DNA of 64,000 bases from the sequence record PP359696.1; one strand, 5' to 3'. The stretch is from Escherichia phage Ge15. Below the pieces are notes generated by a model that was not told where the DNA came from, did not search any database, and saw only the letters and a program-made list of their open reading frames with translations. The translations under genes were made by a program, and so were the position numbers. Positions 5,912 to 26,595 of the stretch are shown in pieces; within the stretch, counting starts at the first letter, position 1; each line of letters begins with the position of its first letter.

Positions 5912-5984
5912 TGGGAATTAGCCAAGTTGGTAAGGCACTGGATTTTGATTCCAGGATGCAAAGGTTCGAGTCCTTTATTCCCAG
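5912..5984 (+). tRNA. tRNA-Gln (anticodon UUG)
   Basis: Cloverleaf by eye: acceptor TGGGAAT/ATTCCCA, anticodon loop TTTTGAT, T-arm GGTTCGAGTCC; abuts tRNA-Leu as a dimeric precursor. Confidence 0.85.
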
Positions 5985-5985
5985 C

Positions 5986-6073
5986 GCGAGAATGGTCAAA
6001 TTGGTAAAGGCACAGCACTTAAAATGCTGCGGAATTATTTCCTTGTGGGTTCGAGTCCCACTTCTCGCACCAA
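5986..6073 (+). tRNA. tRNA-Leu (anticodon UAA)
   Basis: Acceptor GCGAGAA/TTCTCGC, anticodon loop CTTAAAA, long variable arm, encoded CCA. Confidence 0.85.
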
Positions 6074-6077
6074 ATTT

Positions 6078-6151
<74 letters not shown>

Positions 6152-6155
6152 ATTT

Positions 6156-6806
6156 ATGACTCGTCGTGAGACGCTCAGTTCTTTATTAGGGACTGATATG
6201 CATTTTTATCTTTATAAAATAACAAATAAAATTAATAATAAAATTTATATTGGTGTGCATTCTACCGAAAATTTAGATGATGGATATATGGGTTCTGGTA
6301 AATTATTAAAAAGAGCCCAAGATAAATATGGTATAGAAAATTTTTCTAAAGAAATATTAGAGTATTTTGATGATAAAGAATCTATGCTTGAAGCCGAGAA
6401 AAATATTGTCACAGAAGAGTTTTTAAATAGACCAGATGTGTATAATTTAAAACTTGGAGGTGAAGGTGGATGGGACCATATAAATAATTATCCTATGACA
6501 GATCAGCAACGCGAATTAATTTCATTGGGTGTTAAAAAGGCACATTCTAACGGAAAATTAAAAGGATGGTCTTCAAATGGATTAATGAAGAATGGCTTTA
6601 CTGGTAAAACTCATTCTCAAGAAGCTAAACGTAAAATAGCAAAAGCAAACGAAGCAAAAGTTTCTGCGGATGAAAGAAAAAGAAGAATAGAAATTTCTAA
6701 ATTATATGATTTTTCTAAGCGTGGTGAATTATCTAAATATGCTAAGCATATTGGCGTAAGTCATACTCAAGCAAAAAGAATTCTAAATCAAATTAACAAT
6801 ATATAA
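6156..6806 (+). CDS. segB: GIY-YIG homing endonuclease SegB-like
   Basis: GIY-YIG motifs (YLYKITNKINNKIYIGVH ... YMGSG) in an ORF embedded in the tRNA cluster as T4 segB; true start may be ATG 6198. Confidence 0.75.
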   Translation: MTRRETLSSLLGTDMHFYLYKITNKINNKIYIGVHSTENLDDGYMGSGKLLKRAQDKYGIENFSKEILEYFDDKESMLEAEKNIVTEEFLNRPDVYNLKLGGEGGWDHINNYPMTDQQRELISLGVKKAHSNGKLKGWSSNGLMKNGFTGKTHSQEAKRKIAKANEAKVSADERKRRIEISKLYDFSKRGELSKYAKHIGVSHTQAKRILNQINNI

Positions 6807-6812
6807 ATATTT

Positions 6813-6902
6813 GGAGGCGTGGCAGAGTGGTTTAATGCACCGGTCTTGAAAACCGGCAGTCGCTCCGGCGACTCATAGGTTCAAATCCTATCGCCTCCGC
6901 CA
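6813..6902 (+). tRNA. tRNA-Ser (anticodon UGA)
   Basis: Acceptor GGAGGCG/CGCCTCC, anticodon loop CTTGAAA, long variable arm, CCA encoded. Confidence 0.85.
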
Positions 6903-6908
6903 GTTTTT

Positions 6909-6984
6909 GCTGATTTAGCTCAGTAGGTAGAGCAACTCACTTGTAATGAGAAGGTCGGCGGTTCGATTCCGTCAATCAGCACCA
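6909..6984 (+). tRNA. tRNA-Thr (anticodon UGU)
   Basis: Acceptor GCTGATT/AATCAGC, anticodon loop CTTGTAA, T-arm GGTTCGATTCC. Confidence 0.8.
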
Positions 6985-6985
6985 A

Positions 6986-7060
6986 GGCCCTGTAGCTGGA
7001 AGGTTCAAGCAAGCGACTCATAATCGCCAGATGGTGGTTCAATTCCACCCAGGGCCACCA
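6986..7060 (+). tRNA. tRNA with CAU anticodon (Ile, lysidine-type as in T4, or Met)
   Basis: Acceptor GGCCCTG/CAGGGCC, anticodon loop CTCATAA, T-arm GGTGGTTCAATTCCACC. Confidence 0.75.
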
Positions 7061-7066
7061 AATTAA

Positions 7067-7153
7067 GGGGAGTTATCCCGTAGAGGTAGCGGTGTGGACT
7101 GTAAATTCATTGTCATTGCGACTCGGGTGGTTCGACTCCACCACTCCCCACCA
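7067..7153 (+). tRNA. tRNA-Tyr (anticodon GUA)
   Basis: Acceptor GGGGAGT/ACTCCCC, anticodon loop CTGTAAA, long variable arm resembling E. coli tRNA-Tyr, T-arm GGTGGTTCGACTCCACC, CCA. Confidence 0.7.
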
Positions 7154-7157
7154 ATTT

Positions 7158-7232
7158 GGATGTGTAGCTCAATGGCAGAGCGATCGCCTGTTAAGCGATT
7201 GGTTATAGGTTCGAATCCTATCACGTCCGCCA
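7158..7232 (+). tRNA. tRNA-Asn (anticodon GUU)
   Basis: Acceptor GGATGTG/CACGTCC, anticodon stem ATCGC/GCGAT with loop CTGTTAA, T-arm GGTTCGAATCC. Confidence 0.8.
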
Positions 7233-7346
7233 AATTTGTGACAACTGTCACATTAATATCTACTTGACGCGATTATAGGGGTTGAACTGATCACTCTTCT
7301 CTTAATTTCGTGTGAAGACATCTTGATTGTTGGAGTAGGTATTAAT

Positions 7347-7422
7347 GTGGCCGTAGTTCAGTTGGTAGAACTCGAGATTGTGATTCTCGTAGTCATGGGT
7401 TCGACTCCCATCGGTCACCCCA
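7347..7422 (+). tRNA. tRNA-His (anticodon GUG)
   Basis: Extra 5' G, anticodon stem CGAGA/TCTCG with loop TTGTGAT, T-arm GGTTCGACTCC, CCA. Confidence 0.8.
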
Positions 7423-7426
7423 ATTA

Positions 7427-7502
7427 CGGGGCATAGCTCAGAAGGAAGAGCAAGGACCTTCTAAGTCCTAGGTCGTAGGTTCGATCCCTACTGCCTCGAC
7501 CA
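7427..7502 (+). tRNA. tRNA-Arg (anticodon UCU)
   Basis: Acceptor CGGGGCA/TGCCTCG, anticodon stem AGGAC/GTCCT with loop CTTCTAA, CCA. Confidence 0.85.
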
Positions 7503-21710: not shown

Positions 21711-22256
21711 ATGACGGTAGCGGCGAAACGATTAGTATTAGAAGTTAGTTCACTTTTTGGTGAATTGGCTATAGAAAAAGTAAATAATATGTATCGTTTG
21801 ACACAAGAAGACGATATGCTGTATTTTACGCCTAGTGAAATCATTCATTTAACCAAAATTGAAAATCCTTATACTGATAAAATTGTAAGCATTAATGATG
21901 AGCATAAAATTCATTTTTATTCTTCATGCCCAGGATTTAATATTGAAAGCGAGTCAATATGCTTATCAGTTATCCATTGGGATAGTTTTATAGATAAGAT
22001 TAAATATTTTTATTATTCTAATGAAAGAAAACATAGTTTAAAATGGTTTAAAAATTGCAATGCTATTATTACTAACGCTTGCAATCAGAATGATGAAACT
22101 GTTTTAAACGTATCAAAATGTTATGAAGATGGAGATGTCTTAACTATTCGTCAAATTGATGATTTTCGAGCACATATTGTCACATTTACCAAAGACGAAG
22201 CTATTGCACTAAAGACTTATCTTGATTCTGTCATTCCAACTATGATTTCAAAGTGA
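21711..22256 (+). CDS. hypothetical protein, paralog A
   Basis: 181-aa ORF; shares GFNIE and C-terminal TKDEAIALKTYLDSVIPTM motifs with the next gene. Confidence 0.55.
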   Translation: MTVAAKRLVLEVSSLFGELAIEKVNNMYRLTQEDDMLYFTPSEIIHLTKIENPYTDKIVSINDEHKIHFYSSCPGFNIESESICLSVIHWDSFIDKIKYFYYSNERKHSLKWFKNCNAIITNACNQNDETVLNVSKCYEDGDVLTIRQIDDFRAHIVTFTKDEAIALKTYLDSVIPTMISK

Positions 22257-22262
22257 GGAAAT

Positions 22263-22784
22263 ATGTTTATTTCAAGTGAAAGTGGTTTAATTCGTGTTGA
22301 ATTTAAAAATGACATCTTTCTTATTCAAGGAGATGATATTATTAAAATGAGTTATGACGAAATCAAGAAAATTTGTCATGCTCTTGAAAGTCATGGAAAA
22401 GTGAACGCTGTTATTGATATTGGCGATTTATGGGTGACACTTTATGAAGTATCCGAAGGATTTAACATTGAAGATGAAAATAACATTTTAGCTATTGATA
22501 AAAGAACTGATTTGCTTGATGTGTTAAAAGTTTATGAACAGTCAAACGGTGGAAGAAAAGCTGTATTGATTTATCAAAAACCGCATTCATGTGGAACTGC
22601 TTCAATCATTTCAAATATTGAAGGCGAAGTTGATACTTATATGTGTGTTTTAAAAGCTGGTGGTGACCGTCATCCGGATTTTATTTCTATTCGTCAAAAC
22701 AATGGAGAAATTTCATTATCAAAATCAGAAGCTGAAGCTATGATTAAGTATTTAACAACCGTTACGCCTTCAATGAAAGGATAA
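22263..22784 (+). CDS. hypothetical protein, paralog B
   Basis: 173-aa ORF; C-terminus SKSEAEAMIKYLTTVTPSM parallels paralog A. Confidence 0.55.
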   Translation: MFISSESGLIRVEFKNDIFLIQGDDIIKMSYDEIKKICHALESHGKVNAVIDIGDLWVTLYEVSEGFNIEDENNILAIDKRTDLLDVLKVYEQSNGGRKAVLIYQKPHSCGTASIISNIEGEVDTYMCVLKAGGDRHPDFISIRQNNGEISLSKSEAEAMIKYLTTVTPSMKG

Positions 22785-22786
22785 TT

Positions 22787-23248
22787 ATGATTATTAATGA
22801 AAACTCTTGGCACTATAAATTATTCAAATTGTTTAACGATGAATGGCAACGACCTAAGACATTATGCGCATATTTTTGGTCTATTGCCATTCCTACATTT
22901 TTCGTTTCTATTTTTGGATGTGTTATACTCGTAGGGCTAACAATTATTTGTGCAGAAAGCCTACAACGTTGGCTTATTTTCGGTAGTTTATGGACTCTTC
23001 TTCCATCGGCATTTATACTTGCACTTTTGGTTGTTTTACTTATTATCGGTTCATTTGTTATTCCTGCACATTTGCGTGAAAAATATAAAGATTATAAATG
23101 GAAAAAGGATTATGCTTTACACGTAGAAAATATTGATAGGGCGTATAAAGGTTTACCTCCTATTCAACCCAAGAAATCGGTTATCGTTGAATTTTTAAAA
23201 GCTCGTAAAGCTAAAGTATGTCCTGTTATTGAATATAAGGCTGAATGA
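22787..23248 (+). CDS. membrane protein, unknown function
   Basis: 153-aa ORF with two or three predicted TM helices. Confidence 0.55.
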   Translation: MIINENSWHYKLFKLFNDEWQRPKTLCAYFWSIAIPTFFVSIFGCVILVGLTIICAESLQRWLIFGSLWTLLPSAFILALLVVLLIIGSFVIPAHLREKYKDYKWKKDYALHVENIDRAYKGLPPIQPKKSVIVEFLKARKAKVCPVIEYKAE

Positions 23249-24258
23249 TGAAAACAGTAATGAAAAGCTATTTTGGTAGTCATCTTTATGGAACTTCTAC
23301 CCCAGAATCTGATGTAGATTTTAAAGAAATCTTTGTTCCTCCTGCTCGTGATATTCTTATCGGAAATGTTAAAGAGCATATGAGTAAAAATACCAACAAC
23401 ACATCATCTAAAAACACTAAAGATGATATTGACCACGAATTGTATAGTCTTAAGTATTTCTTTAAATTAGCAGCAGATGGTGAAACTGTAGCATTAGATA
23501 TGCTTCACACTCCACCTGAACTAGTGGTTAAATCTGATTTGCCTGATGTGTGGAAGTTTATTCAAGACAACCGTTCTCGTTTTTATACGACTAACATGAA
23601 ATCCTATTTAGGATATGTCCGCAAGCAAGCTTCTAAATACGGTGTCAAGGGTTCTCGTTTGGCTGCATTACGCGATGTATTGAAAGTAGTTAATCAAATC
23701 CCTGAGCAATGGGTTGATTACCAAGAAGACGGTTCCATTAAGCAGCGTCGTACTAAAGTTGAAGATATTAAGCATCGTCTTCCAGAAAACGAATTCTGTG
23801 AATGGGTGTTCCATAATCATGAGAAAACAGGTCCACAAACGTTCTATACAGTGCTGGGTCGTAAATATCAGACAACGCTTTCTCTTATTGAGCTTAAGCA
23901 GTCACTGAACAAATTAGATGCTGAATATGGTGAACGTGCTCGTAAAGCCGAAGCTAATGAAGGTATTGATTGGAAAGCACTAAGTCATGCTTGTCGTGGT
24001 GGACTTCAACTATTGGAAATTTACAAAACTGGCGACTTGATTTATCCACTCCAAGATGCTCCATTTATTCTCGACGTGAAGTTGGGTAAACATCCATTTA
24101 AAACAGTTCAAGAGTTTTTGGAAGATGTGGTCGATCAAGTAGAAGCAGCATCTACTGAAGCTTCTAAGAACGGTATGCAGCAAAAAGTAGACATGGGTTT
24201 CTGGGATGACTTCCTTGAGAAGGTCTATCTTGAAAACCACCGAAGTTATTATAAATGA
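23245..24258 (+). CDS. Pol-beta-superfamily nucleotidyltransferase-like protein
   Basis: 337-aa ORF with N-terminal motif YFGSHLYGTSTPESDVDF (GS-x9-D-x-D). Confidence 0.6.
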   Translation: MMKTVMKSYFGSHLYGTSTPESDVDFKEIFVPPARDILIGNVKEHMSKNTNNTSSKNTKDDIDHELYSLKYFFKLAADGETVALDMLHTPPELVVKSDLPDVWKFIQDNRSRFYTTNMKSYLGYVRKQASKYGVKGSRLAALRDVLKVVNQIPEQWVDYQEDGSIKQRRTKVEDIKHRLPENEFCEWVFHNHEKTGPQTFYTVLGRKYQTTLSLIELKQSLNKLDAEYGERARKAEANEGIDWKALSHACRGGLQLLEIYKTGDLIYPLQDAPFILDVKLGKHPFKTVQEFLEDVVDQVEAASTEASKNGMQQKVDMGFWDDFLEKVYLENHRSYYK

Positions 24259-24260
24259 TA

Positions 24261-24284
24261 GGGAGCCTTCGGGCTCCCTTTTTT
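24261..24284 (+). terminator. rho-independent terminator
   Basis: GGGAGCCTTCGGGCTCCC hairpin then TTTTTT. Confidence 0.75.
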
Positions 24285-24308
24285 ATTTCAAAAATTTTTC
24301 ACAAAGTT

Positions 24309-24338
24309 GTTTACAAGCATAAAGCTTTATGGTACTAT
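24309..24338 (+). promoter_or_regulatory. early promoter (TTCACAAAGTTGTTTACA ... TGGTACTAT)
   Basis: Same upstream element and -10 core as other early promoters in the window. Confidence 0.55.
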
Positions 24339-24376
24339 ACAACTATCAAAACAAATGAGTAAATTGGAGATACAAA

Positions 24377-24577
24377 ATGACTACTTTGAATAAACGTTTC
24401 GGTAAAGCTAAATCTGGGTGTGCAGCTGAACGTCGTTATGTTTTCGCTCAGTTAGAAGATGTAGAGTATCAGATTAATCAAGTTCACATTACTGGTATCG
24501 AGCCTATGTGTGGCCTTGAAGCTCTTCGTGAAGTTCGTGACGGGTATCGTCGTGACATCGAAGAAATGTCAAAATAA
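24377..24577 (+). CDS. hypothetical protein
   Basis: 66-aa ORF with GGAGA RBS. Confidence 0.5.
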   Translation: MTTLNKRFGKAKSGCAAERRYVFAQLEDVEYQINQVHITGIEPMCGLEALREVRDGYRRDIEEMSK

Positions 24578-24634
24578 GTATACAAACTGATAGGACTATG
24601 TTATAGTAGTCCTATCAAATCAAAGGAGAATAAA

Positions 24635-25603
24635 ATGAAAACTGTAACTATCAATAAGGGTATCTACTTTGGCAAAGAAATCTCTGGAACTTTTGAGCTC
24701 TTAGGCGAATGGTTCCCAGATAATGCTCCGGTAGATGCACAAGGAGATGGTAAAGTTTTTGTTGAAATTGACGGTAAACGTCGCGGTGTTTGGGTTTACA
24801 AATCAGATATTTCATATGATGGTGTAAAAGTTGAAGAAGTTAAAGAATCGTATGAAGATATGAAAACCCGCATTAATAAAAGATTTAATGTTATGGGAAT
24901 GATGACGAATGGTATTATTAATGGAAATATTCGTTCATTAATTATCTCTGGCGCAGCAGGTATTGGTAAAACGTATTCTTTAGATAAAGCTTTAAATAAA
25001 GCAAATGATATTGGATACATTGAATATAAAAGCATTAATGGTAAAATCTCTGGTATCGGTCTTTATGAACAGCTTTGGAATAATCGTGAAGAGAATTCTG
25101 TCCTTTTGATTGATGATGTGGATGTTTTCTCTGATATGGACATTCTTAATCTTCTGAAAGCTGCTCTGGACACCGGAGAGACCCGCAAAGTCTGCTGGAG
25201 CACTGCATCTTCTTACTTAGAAGAAAAAGGCATTGAGCGTGAGTTTGAATTTAAAGGAACGATTGTTTTTATCACAAACGTTGACATTGACCGCGAATTA
25301 GACCGTGGTACTAAACTTGCTCCACATTTACAAGCATTAGTTTCCCGCTCGGTTTATTTAGATTTGGGTGTTCACACTAATGAAGAAATTATGGTCAGGG
25401 TTGAAGATGTTATTCTTTCAACTGACATGATGCAAAAACGCGGTCTTTCTGATGAAGAAACTTATAAAGCATTATCATGGATGAAAGTCAATGTTAATCG
25501 TTTACGCAATGTTTCACTGCGTACTGCACTTTATCTTGCTGACTTTATTATGACCGACAAAAACGGTTGGGAAGAAATCGCTGAGGTTACTCTTCTGAAA
25601 TAA
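24635..25603 (+). CDS. AAA+/P-loop ATPase, unknown function
   Basis: 322-aa ORF with Walker A ISGAAGIGKTY and Walker B VLLIDDVD. Confidence 0.65.
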   Translation: MKTVTINKGIYFGKEISGTFELLGEWFPDNAPVDAQGDGKVFVEIDGKRRGVWVYKSDISYDGVKVEEVKESYEDMKTRINKRFNVMGMMTNGIINGNIRSLIISGAAGIGKTYSLDKALNKANDIGYIEYKSINGKISGIGLYEQLWNNREENSVLLIDDVDVFSDMDILNLLKAALDTGETRKVCWSTASSYLEEKGIEREFEFKGTIVFITNVDIDRELDRGTKLAPHLQALVSRSVYLDLGVHTNEEIMVRVEDVILSTDMMQKRGLSDEETYKALSWMKVNVNRLRNVSLRTALYLADFIMTDKNGWEEIAEVTLLK

Positions 25604-26007: not shown

Positions 26008-26009
26008 TT

Positions 26010-26039
26010 GTTTACAAGACCGTTCCTCTGTGGTACTAT
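26010..26039 (+). promoter_or_regulatory. early promoter (GTTTAC ... TGGTACTAT)
   Basis: Upstream arm GTTCCTC is complementary to the downstream RBS GAGGAAC. Confidence 0.55.
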
Positions 26040-26067
26040 ACAACTATCAACTACGGAGGAACACAAA

Positions 26068-26595
26068 ATGAACGCTAAAGATATTTTCAACCTGGTAAAT
26101 TACAACGATGGTAAATTTAAATCAGAAGCACAAAGCAAGTTCTTTAATGACATCTCAATCGGAGGTGAAATCACGGTTGATGGAGGACAAATTTACAAAT
26201 CCCGTTGGAATTGGATCGTTATTATTGATGAGATTGGTATCGTAGAAATTTATAAAAATACGAATAAAAATCGTACATTACACTGGTCTCGTGATACTAA
26301 CGAACAGTACAAAAAGGATAAAGCATCTAAATTATCTCGTGTAACTCAAGAAGATATTGAGTTCATCAAGAAAGATATTTTGATGTATGATAACTTAATT
26401 GCTGAAGAGCAAGCTGTTATTGATAAATTTGACGAGATTAAAGCTTCTCGTGAAATTCCTGATTTTATGAAAGAATCAGTAAATGAACGATACACTCTCA
26501 TTTCAGAGCGTATTGAAACTTACAAAAAGCAAAGAGCTGAACGCCAGAATACTCTTCGGAAGTTTGAAGAACGGTTAAAGACGGTACTCGCATAA
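26068..26595 (+). CDS. hypothetical protein with C-terminal coiled coil
   Basis: 175-aa ORF from ATG 26068; track ORF extension is promoter read-through. Confidence 0.55.
   Translation: MNAKDIFNLVNYNDGKFKSEAQSKFFNDISIGGEITVDGGQIYKSRWNWIVIIDEIGIVEIYKNTNKNRTLHWSRDTNEQYKKDKASKLSRVTQEDIEFIKKDILMYDNLIAEEQAVIDKFDEIKASREIPDFMKESVNERYTLISERIETYKKQRAERQNTLRKFEERLKTVLA

Follow-up and report, generated by a model that had tools for sequence, protein, structure and literature searches.

A predicted RlaP-family nucleotidyltransferase and an independent orphan AAA+ ATPase on either side of a PeSL spacer in the T-even phage nrdC region

RNA repair as a means of viral counter-defence was first exemplified by the Pnk and Rnl1 enzymes of T4, and the genes considered here, nrdC.11 and nrdC.10 of Escherichia phage Ge15 with the spacer between them, may bear on this pathway; they lie in a 64,000-nucleotide stretch of T2/T4-like Tequatrovirus DNA (sequence record PP359696.1), called the window below. 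RloC's removal of the wobble nucleotide has been argued to be able to defeat T4 Pnk and Rnl1 (PMC2610378), and RlaP proteins have been proposed to counter such nucleases, which cut and then trim (PMC12776372). Two Pseudomonas RlaPs add one or two nucleoside monophosphates (NMPs) to RNA 3'-OH ends in vitro; they favour Mn2+ and a mimic of cleaved tRNA, also label full-length tRNA, and act on neither DNA nor protein, E. coli proteins remaining unlabelled (PMC12776372; bioRxiv 10.64898/2025.12.29.696909, December 2025). When RlaP is followed by T4 Rnl1, a tRNA lacking one anticodon-loop nucleotide regains aminoacylation (PMC12776372). In jumbo phages the distribution of RlaP mirrors that of RNA ligases (PMC7824862), and the idea of fill-in repair was already present in Burroughs and Aravind 2016, going by the passages of PMC7824862 and PMC12776372 that cite it. 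T4 NrdC.11 has been placed in cluster 5 of the RlaP family by membership, the enzymes assayed being those of Pseudomonas (PMC12776372), and a 2006 comparison of T4-like genomes had put nrdC.11 in COG3541 (nucleotidyltransferase) and counted nrdC.10 among the AAA ATPases (PMC1524935). The spacer has its closest described counterpart in the promoter-early stem-loop (PeSL) element, for which the PST/T4 consensus is TTTACW-N17-TAYWAT (PMC4122927).

The Ge15 locus belongs to this known ground. Over 2.8 kb it is 97.7% identical at the DNA level to Yersinia phage phiD1 and many coliphages (T2-like Tequatrovirus); the first protein is 98% identical to T4 NrdC.11 (NP_049709) and 99% to the phage T2 protein, and the second is 99% identical to T4 NrdC.10 (NP_049708). 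Both genes are therefore already catalogued T4 open reading frames (ORFs) with published family assignments, and the finding adds little, since the fill-in idea and the family membership of T4 NrdC.11 are already in the literature. The explanation that we favour for the locus, with moderate confidence in the whole, joins three parts: an RlaP-type repair nucleotidyltransferase (NTase), an independent orphan AAA+ ATPase, and a PeSL spacer that carries a mobile cassette. The main features of the two genes, and the landmarks of the first, are:

23245-24258, + strand: nrdC.11 ortholog, predicted Pol-beta nucleotidyltransferase, 337 amino acids
23275-23280, + strand: G11-S12 of NrdC.11
23311-23319, + strand: D23/D25 of NrdC.11
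23431-23433, + strand: D63 of NrdC.11, the third carboxylate
23695-23877, + strand: clade-specific beta-rich insert of NrdC.11, residues 151-211
24635-25603, + strand: nrdC.10 ortholog, predicted AAA+ ATPase, 322 amino acids

The initial annotation had called both reading frames, one as a Pol-beta NTase and the other as a Walker A/B AAA+ protein, and had recognised neither as a classical T4 enzyme; all of this was confirmed, the two being the T4 ORFs nrdC.11 and nrdC.10. It had also held that placement of both as conserved T4 nrdC-region proteins of unrelated fold, or loss of the DxD residues, would speak against it: they are indeed conserved nrdC-region proteins, with the called folds and the DxD in place.

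By its sequence, NrdC.11 is a divergent member of the RlaP family (PF10127), a family of Pol-beta nucleotidyltransferases, with an intact catalytic triad, D23, D25 and D63. It scores 44.3 bits against PF10127 (E 2.3e-11), above the gathering threshold of 23, and matches phrog_388, annotated as nucleotidyltransferase, at E 1.8e-136. An exhaustive search returned 3414 representatives of its relatives; 38 family members, with identities down to 34%, were aligned to assess residue invariance, and all 38 match PF10127 (best E 2.2e-19). Across this alignment G11, S12, D23, D25 and D63 are invariant, as are K244, H248 and R251 in the C-terminal helical domain. The NTase signature of the initial annotation is thus real and, with these profile matches, far beyond chance; its spacing was misread as x9, the motif being GS-x10-DVD (G11-S12, ten residues, D23-V24-D25). 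An AlphaFold2 model with a predicted local distance difference test score of 91 comprises an N-terminal NTase domain, the beta-rich insert (residues ~151-211) and a helical C-terminal domain. The PF10127 match covers profile positions 23-142 of 249 and, when residues 151-211 are removed, grows to positions 23-176, through the helix that bears K244, H248 and R251. Direct hhalign comparison with canonical RlaP gives 94% probability (E 9e-8) over only 116 columns and pairs the GS, DxD and D63 of NrdC.11 with G39/S40, D51/D53 and D84; by blastp the relationship of the two types is barely detectable. Searches of PDB sequences, by single sequence and by profile, gave nothing meaningful for NrdC.11 or NrdC.10, NCBIfam gave sub-threshold noise only, and PADLOC matched neither of these proteins, nor the product of the 66-residue ORF between their genes, nor five neighbouring proteins.

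By analogy with the Pseudomonas enzymes, the most likely role of NrdC.11 is to refill trimmed nucleotides in cleaved tRNA before it is resealed by T4 Pnk and Rnl1. We hypothesize that it would extend the 3'-OH of broken RNA by one or two NMPs, in a reaction that probably uses Mn2+ and needs no template. Its likely substrate would be a tRNA's 5' half, left when a host RloC-type anticodon nuclease has first cut and afterwards trimmed the anticodon loop; the refilled, full-length loop could then be handed to the phage Pnk and Rnl1 for healing and sealing, making NrdC.11 the putative "fill" step of a heal-fill-seal counter-defence. If NrdC.11 does supply this missing step, T-even phages would carry a three-enzyme heal-fill-seal pathway.

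The cellular relatives point in the same direction. Full-length NrdC.11-type proteins, 33-53% identical, occur in bacterial and archaeal genomes, and among 80 such loci an RNA-repair gene (RtcB, Pnkp/Hen1, Ro60/TROVE, or T4-type Pnk and Rnl1) lies within 4 kb in 13, so that the association with repair extends to the NrdC.11 clade itself and is not confined to the Pfam family at large. Directly downstream of the NrdC.11-type gene (~320 residues), 17 of the 80 loci carry a shorter, canonical RlaP gene (~255-290 residues), often with overlapping stop and start codons; these downstream proteins are full-length canonical RlaPs, with 175-252 bits over the whole profile, and the pairs sit inside RtcB or Pnkp/Hen1 repair operons:

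Loci with the tandem pair: L127, L129, L142, L144, L145, L150, L153, L156, L172, L174, L175, L181, L187, L193, L195, L197 and L200
Example of the pair: L156, 8004-9746

In the phage DNA examined, the NrdC.11 type alone was found, with no canonical RlaP. Sequence comparison thus indicates that the NrdC.11-type proteins are a distinct paralogous RlaP subfamily, kept by bacteria beside canonical RlaP, and this tandem arrangement may be a modest new point. As a side observation, genes for NrdC.11-like, T4 PseT-like and T4 RnlA-like proteins stand in a row on one strand of a 4-kb contig binned as a Bathyarchaeota metagenome-assembled genome (L126, 62-3803, the locus counted above for T4-type Pnk and Rnl1); the cluster looks like a compact heal-fill-seal unit, and it may be viral.

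Several points weigh against the reading that we favour. The RlaP evidence comes from a preprint, in which the in vivo role is a proposal (PMC12776372), and T4 nrdC.11 can be deleted under laboratory conditions (PMC9825161), which would also fit an accessory role. In T4-like phages nrdC.11 does not lie beside rnlA, rnlB or pseT: in T4 it stands at 55.4 kb and the rnlA/rnlB/pseT set at 108.6, 134.0 and 136.3 kb of the same genome, which puts the Pnk and Rnl1 genes ~80 kb away, and no RnlA, RnlB or PseT homolog was found in the window. NrdC.11 shares just the NTase core with the canonical RlaPs that were assayed (~18-25% identity over ~116 columns), and the 17 tandem loci suggest that the two types are not interchangeable: bacteria retain both paralogs side by side, so they presumably do different jobs. 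Given the tandem paralogs and a shared core alone, an RlaP activity for NrdC.11 is something that we infer, and the existence of a separate subfamily cautions against direct transfer of the measured activity. The best solved structural neighbour of NrdC.11 is HalB (PDB 9dbh), an oligodeoxyadenylate synthase and not an RNA-repair enzyme. Finally, as regards the independence of the two genes, they have stayed adjacent at 38 of the 78 viral NrdC.11 loci, and a looser functional link between them is possible.

The HalB likeness bears on a different function, in which NrdC.11 would make a nucleotide or oligonucleotide product: a signal of the cGAS/DncV type, or a HalB-like oligodeoxyadenylate that serves as decoy or counter-signal against host immunity. 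We regard this as very unlikely. No match to cGAS/DncV-like cyclases was found, so that NrdC.11 cannot be placed among these enzymes, and the suggestion of the initial annotation that it might make or modify a nucleotide signal found no support. HalB, from the Hailong system, is 16% identical to NrdC.11 with no sequence-profile match, and makes an oligo-dA immune signal (review PMC13276650), whereas the surroundings of the NrdC.11 clade are those of RNA repair; nor is there a HalA-like partner beside NrdC.11, and no Hailong pair (HalA with HalB) was recognised at the locus. To a specifically non-repair version we attach a slighter chance still: NrdC.11 as a HalB-like maker of short oligo(deoxy)nucleotides or RNA tails, acting as decoy or counter-signal, so that host immune effectors gated by nucleotides or DNA stay switched off. 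Were it true, the insert-bearing NrdC.11 chemistry would be distinct from that of canonical RlaP, which would explain why bacteria retain the two in tandem.

A Hailong-like pair was also considered with the gene just upstream:

22787-23248, + strand: predicted membrane protein, 153 amino acids, phrog_944; its stop codon overlaps the nrdC.11 start (ATGA)

This gene is translationally coupled to nrdC.11. Its product has no PADLOC match, no match to a solved structure and none to HalA, and the gene is absent from T4; the pair was rejected on the lack of HalA or PADLOC similarity and on this absence.

The immediate neighbours bear equally on the possibility that NrdC.11 is an MNT/AbiEii/MenT-like NTase that modifies protein or host tRNA, whether as an antitoxin or as a host-takeover toxin. 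The E. coli proteins left unlabelled by canonical RlaP (PMC12776372) and a family context formed by RNA ligases both argue against it. The MntA model NF047752, whose cut-off is 60 bits, reaches 13.3 bits here and spans just the GS..D motif; the genes alongside encode the membrane protein and the 66-residue ORF, with no HEPN or other toxin gene adjacent. NrdC.11 could thus not be assigned to the MNT-type antitoxins (type VII toxin-antitoxin systems), and we give this reading a very small probability; no match was found to the antitoxin NTases that the initial annotation had named among the users of the fold.

Ten tRNA genes lie in the window, at 5912-7502 (T4 has eight). Together with the Pol-beta fold and the action of the RlaP family on RNA 3'-OH ends, including the labelling of full-length tRNA in vitro (PMC12776372), they are what speaks for NrdC.11 as an enzyme that adds CCA to, or repairs the 3' ends of, the many tRNAs of the phage. 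Yet CCA is already encoded by nine of the ten genes, the exception being tRNA-Gln (5912-5985), which directly abuts tRNA-Leu, and NrdC.11 shows no match to CCA-adding enzymes that would make it a class II tRNA nucleotidyltransferase; we think this function highly improbable. The earlier proposal that the protein repairs tRNA 3' ends was accordingly close as to tRNA repair, which is where the RlaP family leads, and astray as to the CCA end, the proposed RlaP target being a broken anticodon loop.

Whether nrdC.11 and nrdC.10 form one system is a separate matter. As a functional two-gene module, the ATPase might load or remodel an RNA substrate, or regulate the NTase, and the 38 loci in which NrdC.10 follows NrdC.11 do keep the same order and strand in several T4-like genera, including Acinetobacter phages. 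However, a terminator and a separate early promoter stand between the genes and are conserved in T4, which argues for separate transcription units, and the spacer takes up cassettes, ranging from 0.1 to 2.3 kb with different contents. No NrdC.10 lies within 10 kb in the other 40 of the 78 viral NrdC.11 loci, NrdC.11 is absent within 10 kb at all 33 NrdC.10 relatives of 58% identity or less, and in Aeromonas phages 25 and 44RR2.8t the genes are ~100 kb apart. No AAA+ gene recurs beside the 80 cellular NrdC.11-type genes. Host spread differs as well (NrdC.11 against NrdC.10: Klebsiella 286 against 149 records, Vibrio 59 against 121), the phage records numbering 1517 for NrdC.11 and 1311 for NrdC.10. 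Synteny is about as strong for the upstream membrane protein gene as for nrdC.10, so that adjacency here reflects conserved gene order. We consider the module improbable, and the pairing implied by the initial annotation is not supported, in view of separate transcription units, a variable spacer and uncoupling in distant phages. In the reading that we favour, nrdC.11 and nrdC.10 are two early genes, independent of one another, in the nrdC-mobD hyperplastic region of T-even phages, side by side through shared gene order. The AAA+ neighbour then stands outside the system, and the two genes should not be annotated together.

NrdC.10 itself has the organisation of an AAA+ protein:

Residues 1-61: N-terminal beta domain
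Residues 73-245: AAA+ core
Residues 180-208: insert before sensor 1, with invariant W188, T190 and S192
Residues 249-321: helical lid
24950-24973, + strand: Walker A
25112-25117, + strand: Walker B
25277-25279, + strand: sensor-1 N215
25346-25348, + strand: arginine finger R238
25520-25522, + strand: sensor-2 R296

With both Walker motifs, both sensors and an arginine finger on an alpha-beta-alpha core that carries a helical lid, it falls in the AAA+ superfamily, and it could not be assigned to a specific clade (MoxR, NtrC, clamp loader, DnaA/ORC). Against BFVD it matched only uncharacterised AAA+ phage proteins, and no characterised relative was found. NrdC.10 thus appears to be an orphan AAA+ ATPase with its catalytic motifs intact, and is probably ring-forming. 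Clustering of the neighbourhoods of 33 distant relatives gave no recurrent partner gene, so that guilt by association yields no function. Partial NrdC.10 sequences have also been entered as proteins of Enterococcus faecalis and Escherichia coli (P0126, 100% identical, and P0205, 87%); these are most likely phage contamination of bacterial assemblies.

The terminator, promoter and 66-residue ORF that had been described between the two genes are all present, together with a further element:

24260-24285 (stem 24260-24279), + strand: intrinsic terminator with an 8-bp G+C-rich stem, a UUCG loop and a T-run
24310-24338, + strand: early promoter of the T4 type, TTTACA-N17-TACTAT; its -10 is extended by a TG
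24377-24577, + strand: 66-residue ORF, phrog_6200 (E 1e-35), a mobile small-ORF cassette absent from T4
24579-24618, + strand: promoter-like TATACA-17-TATAGT that overlaps a 12-bp hairpin (24588-24617) without a T-run
Gap regions compared: window 24260-24338 and 24579-24618; L002 8585-9495; L003 10985-11585

The terminator folds at -16.2 kcal/mol (z-score -3.1), and its stem-loop hardly varies across T4 and related loci. Stem-loop and promoter are the two halves of a PeSL, the promoter agreeing with the PST/T4 consensus (PMC4122927). The promoter lies directly before nrdC.10 in T4 and here before the 66-residue ORF and then nrdC.10; its sequence and position suggest that it drives nrdC.10 directly in T4 and, in Ge15, the small ORF first. 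The second hairpin folds at -17.7 kcal/mol (z-score -5.4; 0 of 200 shuffles fold as well) and is followed by the junction CTATCAAA...GGAG, the same as after the intact promoter; we read 24579-24618 as a degraded PeSL at the 3' edge of the cassette. No cassette lies in the gap of T4 or L044; the window has one there, L003 a different one, and L002 both in tandem, each cassette being bounded by promoter-like repeats and then CTATCAAA. The nrdC.11/nrdC.10 gap is a PeSL recombination site and insertion hotspot, occupied here by a mobile 66-residue ORF cassette. Of 122 related loci just 1 has this ORF, and it occurs in only 145 phage records. In Mosigvirus FP43 (L204, 2501-2701) it is 98.5% identical, against ~78% for the backbone genes, and sits not in the nrdC gap but in the e.x region, upstream of nudix hydrolase and lysozyme genes, which points to its recent lateral transfer between genera and sites.

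Upstream of the membrane protein gene the window differs from T4 in a further respect:

21711-22256 and 22263-22784: two y05I-like paralogs in tandem (PF24449/PF24448; putative transcription factors); window 21711-23248 was compared with T4 (L001 14430-15829)

T4 has at the equivalent region mobD, which encodes an HNH homing endonuclease, and a single y05I gene (mobD.1); the insertion of mobD appears to have replaced the second y05I paralog and the membrane protein gene. The annotation of the region calls for some care. Many GenBank and UniRef records of nrdC.10 and nrdC.11 orthologs and of other nrdC.x genes are labelled "thioredoxin", and one NrdC.11 ortholog record is labelled "HNH homing endonuclease"; both labels are annotation errors, the former evidently spread from the gene-name prefix nrdC. 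Further downstream, the nrdC.8 ortholog (ORF 26008-26595) is called from a TTG with 195 residues and its PHROG match begins at residue 21; the true start is probably the ATG at ~26068, giving 175 residues as in T4.

Set beside the systems that it most resembles, the locus combines familiar parts with a number of differences. (i), NrdC.11 belongs to the same Pfam family as the RlaPs of Pseudomonas fluorescens and P. aeruginosa, with catalytic GS, DxD and third Asp that align, an architecture that by the model has an N-terminal NTase and a C-terminal helical domain, and, in its clade, the same linkage to RNA-repair genes; the NrdC.11-type proteins are however ~60-80 residues longer, with the beta-rich insert, and match the first half of the profile alone, at 43-53 bits where canonical RlaP reaches 175-252. 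(ii), NrdC.10 has in common with MoxR-type (NorQ, CbbQ) and NtrC-type proteins and HslU the core AAA+ fold with its motifs and a helical lid, and an insert ahead of sensor 1 that separates helix 3 from strand 4. (iii), T4 shares the order and strand of nrdC.11 and nrdC.10 as well as the intervening terminator and early promoter; its spacer measures 115 bp where that of the window carries the 66-residue ORF cassette, and it has mobD in place of the membrane protein gene and second y05I paralog. (iv), the gap goes unmentioned in PMC4122927, and yet shares with the PeSL cassettes of T4-like phages (Arbiol 2010, PMC2839356; Comeau 2014, PMC4122927) a stem-loop terminator just upstream of an early promoter, a Shine-Dalgarno sequence and start codon after that promoter, and small ORFs gained and lost at the element.

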